A DNA stretch of 64,000 nt, taken from NCBI GenBank assembly GCA_964016885.1, contig OZ024749.1, forward strand, positions 30,938,001 through 31,002,000. The letters run 5' to 3'. Under the pieces are notes generated by a model. The model saw only the letters and a program-made list of their open reading frames with translations. It was not told the origin of the DNA and searched no databases. A program made the position numbers and the translations under genes. Positions within the stretch are counted from its first letter, which is position 1; each line of letters begins with the position of its first letter. This stretch comes from Eledone cirrhosa. Taxonomy: Eukaryota. Shown here in pieces: positions 5,960-55,439 of this stretch.

Positions 5960-6151
5960 GGAACAAGTATGACCCCGACGGCAGAGCTCAAGCCATTTCG
6001 ACGGCTATTTCAATCCAGAAATAGCCGTCGAAACGGCTTGAGCTCTGCCGTCGGGGTCATACTTGTTCCTATTACCCACTCTACTACCCTAATTATTGAA
6101 TACTTTTGTGCTTTATGGTCCATCTGGTTCCTTACCACAATTCCTTCGTTA
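5960..6151 (+). mobile_element. Non-autonomous fold-back derivative of the PLE family A pLTR
   Basis: An inverted arm starting at (TA)n-GGAACAAG, then a direct arm with an 80-nt tail ending CCTTCGTTA-(TA)n. The sequence matches 51910-52043. Confidence 0.85.
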
Positions 6152-7212
6152 TATATATATATATATATGTGAGTGTGTGTGTGTGTGTGCAGACTAACAA
6201 AGCAAGCGAGAGAGTATATTAGTTTAACGCTTGATATAGCAAGGAAAAATACATTAACGTTTCGGACACTAGTGCTGCATCAGAAGATAGAATGAGAAAT
6301 ATAAAATGAAGTAGAAAGATAGATAGTGAAAAGGGGAGAGAAGGGATAAAAATTCTCAGAAAACACACACGAATTTACTTAGACATAATGTATATATATA
6401 TATATATTTATATTATATAGATCAGAGCAAACAACACGGACACTCTATCTCAAAATTATTTTTGAAAAGCATTTAGAAATGCGCAACCGGTAAAAACTTA
6501 AAAACTTAAAACCACAACTGAATACTAACCCATACAATCACTAATACTCTTTTATTCCTAATTAAACTATTTTTCAACTGTGAACAATTTGTCAGCATTT
6601 TCTATTCCGTTTACCAATATATATATATATATAAATATATATGTATATATATATATATATACATATATACATATATATATATATATATATATATATAAGT
6701 GTATATATATATATACATATATATATATATATATATATATATATATATATATATATATATATATATATATATATATATATATATACATATACATGCATAT
6801 ATATATATATTTATATATATGTATATATATATATATATATACATATATATGTATATATATATATATATATATATATACATATATATGCACACACACACAT
6901 ATATATACATATATATACATATATATATACAGATATATATATTGACAGGTAGTGATCGTTATAATAATCATTTATATTTGGCAGATCTGAACCATTGAGC
7001 GCTTGTCTAGAGATTCTTTATACCACCAGTAACTTGATAACAACTTTCAATTGGTATATGTGACTCTATCCACTAGGCTATCTCAAGTTAAATATAGATT
7101 CGGATCGATAAATCTACACAAACCTATGTTAATCAGGTGATTAGATGAGAATAAATCAATGCAGTTGTATTTAATTTCACTTCAGCCATCGATTTATTTA
7201 TTTATTTACATC

Positions 7213-7495
7213 CTTCTTTCTTTCTTTCTTTCTTTCTTTCTTTCTTTCTTTCTTTCTTTCTTTCTTTCTTTCTTTCTTTCTTTCTTTCTTTCTTTCTTTC
7301 TTCCTTTCTTTCTCTCTTTCTTTCTTTCTCACTGTTCTACCTTTCTCTCTCTCTCTCACCCTCTCTCTCTCTCTCTCTCTCTCTCTCTCTCTCTCTCTCT
7401 CTCTCTCTCTATATATATATATATATATATATATATATATATATATATATATATATATATATATAGAGAGAGAGAGAGAGAGAGAGAGAGAGAGA
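7213..7495. repeat. Compound microsatellite (TTTC)n-(TC)n-(TA)n-(GA)n
   Basis: Direct reading. Confidence 0.95.
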
Positions 7496-8627
7496 TTATA
7501 TATATATCCATCTCTCTCTCTATCTCTCTCACTCTCTTTCTCTCTCTCCCGCTTTACCTCTCTCGCTCACTGTTTATTTAGATTTTACTCCTTTTCGTTT
7601 TCTTTCTTTGAAGAATCCTTCAGCTCTCTAGTTATCAGTTATTCGTTAGAAAATACACTTCAGTAATAAGTTCGTTGTAAACAAGACCCTTATCTAAATG
7701 TCAGCCAGGAGTTCTTTAAACCTATACACACACACACACACACATATATGTATATATATATATATATATATATATATATATATATATATATATATATATA
7801 TATATATATATATATATATATATATATATATGTGTGTGTGTGTGTGTGTGTGTGTGTGTGTGTGTGTGTGTGTGTGTGTGTGTGTGTGTGTGTGTGTCTT
7901 TGTTGGTAATGGGAATGCTGGGGCATTATATATATATATATATATAGTAATAATAATACATTTGAAGACTAAAATCCAAAGAGGGCTCGATAAGGATAAA
8001 TATATATCAAAAATATAAGAACAGTAGATATTATATATATATATATATATATATATATATATATATATATATATACATAAATGTATATATATGATATATT
8101 ACATTTATAAATTTATTCTCTCGAAAAGATGATTCTACCTTTCGTGTCGACGTGATAAAGGATGAAACAATAATATAGTAGATTTGATTATCGATAAAGT
8201 AATCCAGCTATGATAGGATAGGTTGTACAATAATCGACAGGTATTTGTTTATAGATCTTGGCATTGCTAAAGACAATTCTGACATAAGAACTATGCAACT
8301 AGGAAAGCATAGTATAATTTATGTCAAATATTACACACATATATGATAATTGACATGCGAGCGCGTATGTATATGTATGTATATATATATATATATATAT
8401 ATATATATATATATATATATATAAATATATATATATATATAGGGTCTACGATATATATATATATATATATATATATATATATATATATATATATATATAT
8501 AGGGTCGACGATTGATAAGATATACACAGACATAGAGACGCAACGACAAACATATATACAAGTTCACGCTCGCACACACACACACACACACACACATATA
8601 TGAATTCATAGGGATATATGTATATAT

Positions 8628-9612
8628 TTAGACATAGTCACAGATACATATATGAGTACGGCTACCTTTCACGATGTGGATCAATGAAAGAATTAATTAA
8701 TCAAATAATTATTAATCAGAGCTATATATAAAATTTCAAGTTTGAAGAATTATTAGATAAAATATATACAGTATTTCCTCTCCCTAGTCCCTAGAAATCA
8801 ATCACATAAATAATCATTTAAACGAGGCTATAAGTTTAAAATGTAACTATGAAGAAATAATTGTTTCTACTTTTGGCATAAGGCCTCCAATTATCCCAGT
8901 GGTAGACATAATGTATATATATATATATATATATATATACTGGTACTTTATTTTATCGACCCCGTAAGGATGAAAGGCAAAGTTAATCTCGCTGGGATTT
9001 GAACTCAGAATGGCAAGGGCCGTAACTCTATGCGTCGAAGGATGGCGTCCAACCCTCTACCGATATTGCCAATCCGCATGAAGAAATAATAGACAAATGA
9101 TAGACTATATTCCGCGAGGAACAGCCACAGAAAATGTGTCTTGTCATATGCCAAAATTCCTCTAGTCCCCTAGGAATTTCGGTAAGGTTTATATGCATTT
9201 TTTCTATTTATTTATATGCATCTTTTCTTTTAACTTCTATTTTAGACCTAGCTCCGTGTATTATTTGTCCAGTCAATTTCTACTGGCTAAAAATAATAAC
9301 TAGTTAAATTTTATCTGGCTGTTCCTCGTAGAAGATAGTCTGTATCATTTGTCTATTATTTCTTCATAGTTACATTTATAAATTATTATAGCCTCGTTTA
9401 AATGATTATTTATGTGGTTGATTTCCAGGAACTAGGGAGAGGAAAGACTGTATATATTTTATCTAATAATTCTTCAAACTTGCAAATTTATATATAGCTC
9501 TGATTAATAATTATTTGATTAATTAATTCTTTCATTGAGCCACACTGTGAAAGGTAGCCGTATTCATATATGTATCTGTGACTATGTCTTCAAACTTGCT
9601 ATTTTATATGTA
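8628..9612. repeat. Fold-back element between (TA)n tracts, left arm interrupted by a SINE
   Basis: 8628-8861 plus 9091-9130 is the reverse complement of ~9315-9590. Confidence 0.8.
8862..9077 (-). mobile_element. Same SINE family with a 13-bp TSD
   Basis: TSD ATGAAGAAATAAT at 8849-8861 and 9078-9090, with an internal (TA)n insertion. Confidence 0.8.
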
Positions 9613-53870: not shown

Positions 53871-54868
53871 GATAGATCCTGTATTAAATTTCCGTTCTTT
53901 ACTTTCACTTCGTACGATCTTTCATGTAGCTTGTATAAGACTTTTTGTTTCGTGGCGGTACCCTTAGAGTTAGCACGAGTATTTTTTTGCGGGACCCTGA
54001 ATTATATTCTCGTACTAGTTTACTTTCTTGCTCTGGGTGGTTGCTGGCCCTGTGATTGGGGTAGAAACCTTTATTATTTCGTGGTAGTCTCTTTAGTATT
54101 TTGCCCCCCCCCCCCCCCTCCCCTGTTGACCCGTCACCGTACGATACGCGCACTTATACCTCGTATAAGGGTCCCTTTATTTCCGTCCCACCTAGTTTAT
54201 TTTTATTTGTTTTTATTCTTCATTATATATTTTCTTTTTTTTAAATTCATTTATCTATTCTTTTATTCACTTATTTGTTTATTTATTTATTTATGTATTT
54301 CTTTAGCCGAGCAATAGCGAGAGACTTATGTCTTAGTAACCAGACTTTGCTTATTTTTTTTCTCTCTCAGTACCTTTTATAGTTTTACCCTTTATTCTAC
54401 TTACCGTTTCGACTTCCTCCCCCTCCCCCTCCCCAGTATCTTCTTTGACCTCACACCCAGCTGTAGCCGGCACTACCAACGCATGAATGGGTCTACTCCA
54501 CCCCCTCCCCCGTTTTCTCTTACCGGCAGGTTCAGCTACCCCTTCCCCCACCAATTTGCCATCACAGATTTACTACTAACTTGTTATGTGACCAATCCTG
54601 GTGATTATCTCTTTGACCATATATGGAATTACCCCCTTGATAAGCTCGGCTATTTAAATACCAGAATAAATTTTCATTCAGTCCAGAATTAGCCGTCGAA
54701 ACGGCTTGAGCTCAGCCGTCGGGGTCTTACTTGTTCCAATTACCCACTCTACTACCCTAAGTATTGAGTACTTTGGTGCGTTATGGTCCACCTGGTTCCT
54801 TACCACATTTCCTTCGTTATATATATATATATATATATATAATTATTATTACTATATATATATATATA

Positions 54869-55175
54869 TTTAGTTAGGAAGTGAACAACACAAAATATAA
54901 CTACTCCATTACCAAAGGTTTCTGGATCCCAGACAATATTAATGTACGTCTGGATCGGTCATCAGACAGAAATGTTATGGATAATAAATATATTTTATCC
55001 ATAACATCTCTTCCTGATGACCGATCCAGACGTATATTAATATTTTCTGGGATCCAGAAACCTTTTGTAATGGAGTAGTTATATTTTGTGTTGTTCACTT
55101 CCTAACTAAATAGCTCTGTTCTATACATAGAACACTCTTTTTTCCTTTGCTTTTCATTCGGAATTACCTAACACA
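54869..55175. mobile_element. Hairpin HHR element
   Basis: 54869-54990 is the reverse complement of 54991-55111, followed by a tail at 55112-55172. Confidence 0.8.
55007..55075 (+). ncRNA. Hammerhead-like fold in a hairpin element; inverted copy at ~54904-54972
   Basis: CTGATGA cc gatccaga...tctgggatc ca GAAA ccttttg TA atggag. The inverted arm has cc-ttt-gg as helix III. Confidence 0.6.
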
Positions 55176-55260
55176 CAGACATACACACACATATGTATAT
55201 ATATGTATATATATATATATATATATATATATATATATATATATATATATATATATATAT

Positions 55261-55439
55261 AACGAAGGAATTGTGGTAAGGAACCAGATGGACCATAACG
55301 CACCAAAGTACTCAATACTTAGGGTAGTAGAGTGGGTAATAGGAACAAGTATGACCCTGACGGCAGAGCTCAAGCCGTTTCGACGGTTATTTCTGGACTA
55401 TTTAGTCCAGAAATAGCCGTCGAACGATACTTGTTCCTA
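55261..55439 (-). mobile_element. Family A fold-back copy
   Basis: It has the same two termini, with a small deletion in the inverted arm. Confidence 0.85.

Follow-up and report, generated by a model that had tools for sequence, protein, structure and literature searches.

The fold-back copies in this part of the Eledone cirrhosa genome raise the question of how a single insertion acquires two fixed and unequal ends, one with a tail and one without, both joined to (TA)n. The window, a 64,000-nt stretch of contig OZ024749.1 (assembly GCA_964016885.1, positions 30,938,001 to 31,002,000, forward strand), contains five fold-backs of one family, here called family A, and one copy that consists of the tail only (inner positions are counted back from site B, defined below):

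5958–6151, plus strand: family A fold-back whose inverted tail-less arm spans B to -53 (5958–6011) and whose tail arm spans -62 to A (6009–6151)
22572–22765, minus strand: family A fold-back whose tail arm starts at -53 and whose tail-less arm reaches -63, with an overlap of 4 nt
45194–45928, minus strand: family A fold-back with a short tail arm starting at -63 and a long tail-less arm that reaches about -668
49350–49543, minus strand: family A fold-back whose tail arm starts at -63 and whose tail-less arm reaches -53
55260–55439, minus strand: family A fold-back; internal deletion in the tail-less arm
21019–21100, minus strand: tail-only family A copy between two (TA)n runs

As the original prediction claimed, all five fold-backs pair a tail arm with an inverted tail-less arm at fixed, unequal ends. 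In each of them the tail arm terminates in ...CCTTCGTTA immediately before (TA)n (site A), while the inverted arm terminates in ...TTCCTA before (TA)n (site B), exactly 80 nt before A on the full-length unit. Across the family, TA runs flank the A end in 102 of 104 copies and the B end in 100, and the tail-only class has 316 exact matches genome-wide. The central junction had been described as variable, which holds at the level of single bases only, as the inner ends cluster at two likely RNA 5' ends. Both inner ends lie within B-53 to B-63 in four of the five window copies, and in the fifth (45195) the tail arm alone ends in that range.

A Penelope-like element (PLE) had been proposed as the source of the fold-backs, and this origin is supported. 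Judged by its sequence, family A represents the terminal part of a Hydra-clade PLE, of which a near-complete parent lies in the window:

51484–54819, plus strand: near-complete parent, in the order pLTR1, tail, ORF, pLTR2, tail, (TA)n
51385–51479, minus strand: inverted fragment (-303 to -207) at the 5' end of the parent, without a B end
51965–52044, plus strand: tail of 80 nt, bounded by site B (51964) and site A (52044) and continuing into the ORF region at its 5' part
52135–53409, plus strand: reverse transcriptase ORF with RWR, DKT and YRDD, resuming after a break at 53415

This partial tandem, with its pLTR, inverted 5' copy and tail, has the arrangement of an EN+ PLE. About 860 nt near 53880 are missing from the parent, the endonuclease region included, and no copy examined carries a single unbroken ORF. 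The reverse transcriptase is telomerase-like (model pLDDT 92; the best three Foldseek matches are telomerase reverse transcriptases), and a VIY...YIG domain of GIY-YIG type follows it C-terminally in copies L221 and L236. A Pfam search returned no reverse transcriptase or GIY-YIG match. Of the motifs that mark the Hydra clade (RWK, and DKT in place of DKG), the window ORF has RLRWR and SDKT; among 120 homologues, 95 have RWK or RWR and 118 have DKT or DKS. L221 further carries CNCPDGSSC, CNLCSEE and CKH, corresponding to the CxCx5C linker and to the CxxC and CxH near E and N, with no CCHH in the endonuclease, and insertion into (TA)n is likewise a Hydra trait. Hydra-clade C-terminal EN+ PLEs are generally shorter than 3 kb with a tail of 30–40 nt, in contrast to about 3.6 kb and 80 nt here (the L221 unit measures 3,629 nt, with a 1.3-kb 3' region), though length below 3 kb is described as a tendency rather than a strict criterion (Craig 2021, PMC8557442). 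A candidate TATA box at -88 was dropped, as it is not kept across subfamilies.

The pairing of the two ends was counted genome-wide with exact patterns covering family A and its short copies. Short fold-backs comprise 10,345 B-A copies, 193 strand matches of B-B (about 97 loci) and 174 of A-A (87 loci), so that 98% are mixed, and reversed control patterns gave 0 matches genome-wide. Single-end totals are nearly equal (A 24,144; B 25,577), for which free choice would make half of the pairs mixed, and the B-A excess is thus not expected from free choice. Among long fold-backs, a hand count found A with B in 9 of the 11 with both ends readable, the other 9 of 20 loci being unclassified or single-armed, and six loci with composite arms also keep A and B ends. 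Single-armed and tail-only copies exist as well, and B-only single arms make up 5 of the 20 long loci. Eight A-A matches that read into the ORF were followed for full-length ORFs behind them; none of the eight far-end stretches had the expected 3.5-kb end, seven having no match and one a separate-looking tail copy, and several are short composite arms.

Arm lengths were compared in 104 copies, a set kept separate from 24 fold-backs found by seeded search and 8 from other sets; four block copies near earlier matches were not counted as unbiased evidence. The longer arm is that of A in 45 copies and that of B in 47, with 12 equal, and among long copies the tail arm is the shorter in six of nine. 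In 3 of the 104 the tail arm starts within the tail, and the sequence copied by the B arm was never part of it. Inversion of the loop after insertion, seen in one neighbouring pair, can blur which arm was longer.

The original prediction placed priming by both target strands at two fixed TA-containing sites. The two fixed sites hold, as does the joining of both target ends to antisense copies; the role of TA in selecting the sites does not. TAT is present at both A and B, and there are 12 TAT triplets within 300 nt of B, whereas in sets assembled without regard to their ends, 114 of 115 ends joined to TA fall at A or B only, so microhomology is not what fixes the sites. A third TA-joined end at -510 was rejected as a start site, since it represents an internal TATATAT, expanded or with nested insertions. 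We infer that reverse transcription starts at B, as opposed to the DNA being cut there.

The inner junctions pile up at two positions that are likely 5' ends of the RNA, B-59 and B-18, where the parent has the following features:

51899–51909, plus strand: initiator-like motif, with a putative capped transcription start at the adenine 51905 (B-59)
51857–51950, plus strand: predicted type I hammerhead ribozyme of pLTR1, with core UUGAUAA and a GUC triplet; 51946 (B-18) is the first base after the predicted cut

At junctions where a purine precedes the adenine at -59, it is G in 3,146 of 3,466 genome-wide exact matches, while in long arms this position holds a pyrimidine in 5,997 cases and a purine in 22; at the control position -58, G occurs in 17 of the first 100 matches listed. 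Such a G is what copying a cap would give, and this is its likely origin. G is found on both arms, with 0–4 nt between them, at 194 loci, and of five of these that were examined, four are insertions in (TA)n with complete B and A ends. By hand count, the G could have come from the opposite arm in 62 of the first 100 G junctions listed and could not in 33, and one identical junction accounts for 28 of the 100. Match counts fall from 38,078 at -55 to 4,357 at -66, a drop that is inflated by subfamily variants and is therefore supporting evidence only.

The second position, B-18, coincides with the predicted ribozyme cut. A strict type I hammerhead pattern fits family A and the family at 32841, and for each, 0 of 200 shuffles reached the score of the predicted ribozyme. 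The pattern was not found in the other six families tried, and Rfam scans returned no hammerhead, only hairpin noise. Among mini fold-backs, of which there are 628, -18 is the exact end point for 13 of 30 tail arms and 10 of 30 tail-less arms, and of the untemplated bases that precede these stops only 4 of 23 are G. What is said here of cap, start site and ribozyme cut is a reading of scars left in DNA.

The pairing of A and B ends, together with the likely marks of RNA 5' ends at the centres, makes each insertion likely to consist of two separate cDNAs. The joining of two cDNAs in the middle, as originally proposed, is thus supported as an interpretation, and we put at roughly 70% the probability that the fold-backs are two cDNAs, one primed by each cut target end at A or B, joined head to head. 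An endonuclease would cut both strands of the (TA)n target, for which another PLE provides an in vitro precedent. One target 3' end would then be placed on site A of the RNA and the other on site B, with 3-nt pairing to UAU; the ends are observed, and the choice of the sites would be made by protein rather than by base pairing. Both cDNAs would copy one shared stretch of RNA toward its 5' end, most running off the capped start at B-59 and a minority off the hammerhead cut at B-18, in keeping with the observed end positions, while long copies may derive from the downstream pLTR of a read-through RNA. Between the 3' ends of the cDNAs, blunt joints, joints with untemplated bases and joints at short overlaps are all observed, and a jump of the reverse transcriptase onto the end of the other cDNA would also yield the second strand. 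A wider proposal, for and against which the odds are about even, is that two-ended integration is obligatory for PLEs. An asymmetric complex would assign the ends to A and B, and two joined cDNAs of sense RNA would form the second strand, which would explain inverted pLTRs, the one-sided tail and partial tandems, the last by jumping to another RNA at the capped end; the pLTR hammerhead would cut template RNA in vivo.

The asymmetry might instead arise if both cDNAs start at A and the endonuclease clips one tail at B during resolution, with B as a DNA cut site. In Craig 2021 the tail is put down to resolution by the endonuclease (PMC8557442). B reads TA followed by TT and holds ATT, the motif preferred by the Poseidon endonuclease, which would allow the DNA to be cut at B. 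One clip would account for the strict asymmetry and for the 316 tail-only copies, and the cap-like G on both arms fits equally well. This explanation is nevertheless unlikely, given that in vitro reverse transcription starts coincide with both tail borders (PMC11167929), that at B ends, as at A ends, TAT passes into (TA)n in register, that 5 of 20 long loci are B-only single arms, and that a clipped end would need rejoining to the target flank. Self-priming, proposed for PLE palindromes (PMC3846280), would have the A-primed cDNA fold back, copy itself to B and join the other target end. In its favour, one subfamily haplotype is common to both arms in 85 of 103 copies, and overlaps of at least 3 nt are enriched (15 of 54, against 11 of 196 expected) at a quasi-palindrome near -63/-53. 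It predicts that the tail arm is never the shorter, whereas that arm is the shorter in 47 of 104 copies and six of nine long ones, and it offers no route to a cap-like G on both arms with loops of 0–1 nt; two copies also have arms from different subfamilies. The frequently shorter tail arm and the G on both arms largely refute self-priming, against which the pairing rule and the ribozyme-cut class argue as well, leaving it distinctly improbable.

Amplification of the fold-backs as non-autonomous units, whether as MITE-like DNA or as retrotransposed fold-back RNA, could account for their very high copy number and for the recurrence of some junctions. Shared inner junctions, which would point to such amplification, are not the general pattern, with 82 junction types in 104 copies. 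Recurrent junctions span different subfamilies at one fixed RNA end, the arms follow the subfamily haplotype of their own copy, and the two termini differ in sequence, so that neither the matching terminal inverted repeats nor the uniform copies of MITEs are found; this origin is very improbable. Fold-back chimeras are a known artefact of long reads, and few inverted joints are bridged in contigs of public runs. Fixed unequal ends, diverged arms and untemplated junction bases nevertheless reduce to a negligible chance that the palindromes are read chimeras or assembly artefacts, and contigs of two public runs, from the same study and hence not independent, show loose (TA)n ends at B and A and a sharp drop in depth upstream of about -62.

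"Twin priming", the term originally applied, does not fit in its LINE-1 sense. In LINE-1, both target ends prime on the RNA, giving an inverted 5' part whose inner junction shows microhomology; the second site varies in position and lies upstream of the first cDNA, the arms do not overlap, and the outcome is a minority one. In family A, by contrast, both arms copy one RNA stretch and overlap, the second site is fixed, and the fold-back is the main outcome.

Inverted, tailed PLEs have already been published, with the formation of inverted structures and the function of the hammerhead given as open questions, and the account of the tail there comes without pairing statistics (Craig 2021, PMC8557442). 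Two reverse transcription start sites in vitro have likewise been described for the Anolis Poseidon PLE (Frangieh 2024, PMC11167929). As in family A, both strands are cut and extended there, two internal starts bound the tail, the target is AT-rich, and the main template is uncleaved RNA, as in the two-cDNA reading. The two strands showed no difference in start site in Poseidon, whereas the two ends of one insertion differ here, so strict pairing is not predicted by that system itself (PMC11167929). Its priming has no need of homology, the parts of that report that were consulted do not deal with inverted copies, and neither reads at the ribozyme cut nor signs of ribozyme cleavage in vivo were found there, in contrast to the minority that stops here at the predicted cut (PMC11167929). 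The PLE palindromes of Arkhipova 2013 (PMC3846280) share head-to-head inverted pLTRs, palindromic junctions, an optional tail and an initiator-like pLTR motif; self-priming, probably on an antisense template, is inferred there, while the G on both arms here points to two cDNAs of capped sense RNA. The pairing rule and the cap and ribozyme signatures were not found in print, a statement on which the supplementary figures of PMC11167929 and PMC8557442 may bear. Over ten thousand natural reaction products in the Eledone cirrhosa genome thus bear on how inverted and tandem PLEs form and on the role of the hammerhead. The two-cDNA reading would explain inverted-repeat formation in PLEs, and copying of RNA from both target ends would be a distinct route to second-strand formation. 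Annotation could mistake fold-backs of this kind for MITEs or for genes of hairpin RNAs.

The same asymmetry had been claimed for eight further places in the window, taken as separate families. Each has one tail-bearing and one tail-less arm, with tails of about 60–125 nt; 13608 and 29248 belong to one family. In the fold-backs at 22803 and 21130, the tail-less end has no clean match to the tail arm at the break. For the family at 54869, two search patterns were tried, and the copies that matched were too few for use. A further fold-back, absent from the earlier list, lies at 44241:

13605–14152, minus strand: second family, tail about 83 nt
29246–30458, minus strand: second family (as at 13605), longer arms
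21129–21620, plus strand: third family, tail about 69 nt, arms 83% alike
22803–25293, plus strand: fourth family, 735-nt arms, tail about 108 nt
27714–29173, minus strand: fifth family, internal 538-nt tandem, tail about 70 nt
32841–34087, minus strand: sixth family, tail about 113 nt, fitting the strict hammerhead pattern
54867–55175, plus strand: seventh family, tail about 62 nt, then a (CA)n-like tract before (TA)n
62021–63025, minus strand: eighth family, tail about 125 nt
44241–44448, plus strand: further family, tail about 57 nt

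All five family A fold-backs of the window, copies of a Hydra-clade Penelope-like element (PLE), carry the two ends assigned to them in the original prediction, and a tail arm together with a tail-less arm is likewise seen at the eight other places named there. On the sense strand, the tail-less end B is the final A of ...TTCCTA (position 0, negative numbers upstream) and the tail end A the final A of ...CCTTCGTTA (+80), on the scale of a full-length unit in locus L221. The observation is real, and the kind of element and its architecture are both known already, elements with an inverted 5' copy and a tail on one side only being described in parts of PMC8557442, PMC3846280, PMC8969392 and PMC2377424. 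Genome-scale signatures in family A put an open mechanism to test.

The family A parent lies in the window:
51484-54819: pLTR, tail, ORF, pLTR, tail, (TA)n
This copy lacks about 860 nt including the endonuclease, a part present in loci L221 and L236. Family A has RWR, DKT, CxCx5C, CxxC and CxH motifs and no CCHH, a set that matches the Hydra clade as section 11 of PMC8557442 describes it; a model of its RT has telomerase RTs as best structural matches. Among 8,000 scored candidates there are 1,929 relatives, and most of the best 120 of these carry Hydra-type motifs. An endonuclease fragment at 25839-26645 belongs to another Hydra-type family (36% identity to the family A endonuclease). Head-to-tail family A tandems with a period of 3.5 kb could give rise to read-through RNA, and three are candidate source loci:
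G000:C1:91476613, C1:437200346 and C2:320551596: 3-4 full-length units, period 3.53-3.54 kb

Across the genome, exact 25-mers join A to TATATA 24,144 times and B 25,577 times, with 316 exact matches to tail-only starts and 318 to read-throughs into the ORF. Exact patterns of short fold-backs number 10,345 for B-A, about 97 for B-B and, as an upper bound, 87 for A-A, since of five A-A matches reading on into the ORF three are composite arms ending at B and another stops at +264, a third TAT. Short fold-backs are thus 98% mixed, with about 50% expected under free choice of end. By hand count, 20 long loci comprise nine A+B, one A+A, one B with an end at +12, seven single-armed and two interrupted. 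The proposed TA microhomology stands in that A and B each have a TAT whose phase matches the flank, but not as the site selector: ten other nearby TAT triplets hardly serve at all, A or B taking 114 of 115 TA-joined ends, so that microhomology is permissive rather than instructive. At -510, within the 3' region of the element, a 7-nt TATATAT has expanded to long stretches of (TA)n or received nested insertions (L226, L227, L231, L233).

The inner junction varies: five sampling sets together give 104 B-A copies with 82 junction types, and the longer arm is the tail arm in 45 and the tail-less arm in 47. In 81 copies not chosen by junction length, the inner end lies at -52 to -64 in 65 tail arms and at -51 to -64 in 73 tail-less arms; only one arm extends beyond -64, in a parse limited to arms of up to 130 nt from B. 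The purine directly 5' of A-59 at junctions is G in 3,146 of 3,466 matches. This G is not inherited, because long arms carry a pyrimidine there (5,997 versus 22 purines). Of the first 100 junction rows, 33 have a G without possible origin in the other arm, 62 a G with one and five an A. For the comparison position -58, G comes before it in 17 of 100 rows. In LINE-1 work, part of PMC9341517 ties untemplated 5' G to copying of the mRNA cap.

At 194 loci each of the two arms carries this G, and 0-4 nt separate them. A hairpin cannot close a loop of 0-1 nt and add G twice, whereas two cDNAs, each copied to a capped end, can explain it. We observe end positions, pairing and junction bases, and infer that both target strands are cut, that cDNA is primed at A as well as at B, that the RNA has a cap, that the ribozyme cuts it and that the products are joined end to end; in the part of PMC11167929 concerned, two start sites are used in vitro and both strands extended. 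Nothing further on the subject appears in the portions available of PMC13282606, PMC13000458, PMC7229834 or a retrozyme preprint (10.64898/2026.07.22.740005, 2026). The neighbouring, near-identical fold-backs at G000:C2:116305606 and C2:116306057 have mutually reverse-complementary loops, suggesting inversion of the loop between the arms after insertion.

Whether two such cDNAs would derive from one RNA is not separated by arm agreement, which fits one RNA copied twice and two RNAs of the same source alike. In 85 of 103 copies the two arms have identical bases at all six diagnostic sites; they differ at two or more sites in three (77 expected under shuffling) and apparently belong to different subfamilies in two. 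Rare variants are common to both arms nine times and single-armed 173 times. Composite arms (L318, L382, L391, L393, L395, L398) reach the inferred start (-53 to -63), jump to another RNA at +143, +172, +194 (twice in L382), +195, +279 or +298, and run to the start again; short partial tandems may arise in this way.

A type I hammerhead fits family A at -107 to -14, with a predicted cut between -19 and -18. The genome holds 628 mini fold-backs, and among 30 fetched, 13 tail arms and 10 tail-less arms stop exactly at -18. Bases added there are more often A or T than G (G in 4 of 23), as expected of an uncapped, ribozyme-cut RNA end. Of the short class, mini fold-backs account for about 6%, which agrees with uncleaved RNA as the main template in vitro (PMC11167929, in part).

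Hand counts of further fetched copies give tail/tail-less head-to-head pairs in about 10 of 10 (13608 family, named like the others by window position), 10 of 10 (44240), 12 of 13 (21130) and 12 of 14 (54869). Hydra-type ORF pieces in matching orientation adjoin copies of families 13608, 21130, 32841, 44240 and 62021 and, judged by eye, one lies beside a 54869 copy (L365); no such link emerged for families 22803 and 27703. Inner ends of the 21130 family also cluster, at about -60 to -65 (L181, L309, L008, L167), just upstream of its hammerhead core, and a fixed RNA start like that of family A is possible. In the 54869 family (window 54867-55175; L351-L370), a (CA)n tract, highly variable in length, stands between the tail end and (TA)n. 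Compound microsatellites may be part of this element or be seeded by it, and the tract is reminiscent of the Poseidon element with its AC-rich start region.

The window has a GC content of 31% and abundant (TA)n. A fragment at 55582-56064, with only a weak DUF6451 match, presumably resembles an RTE-type LINE ORF in its C-terminal part. A frequent dispersed repeat, SINE-like by size alone, is also present:
2787-3426, 14664-14992, 20749-20940, 30795-30985, 38552-39804 and 57487-57932: repeat of about 190 nt
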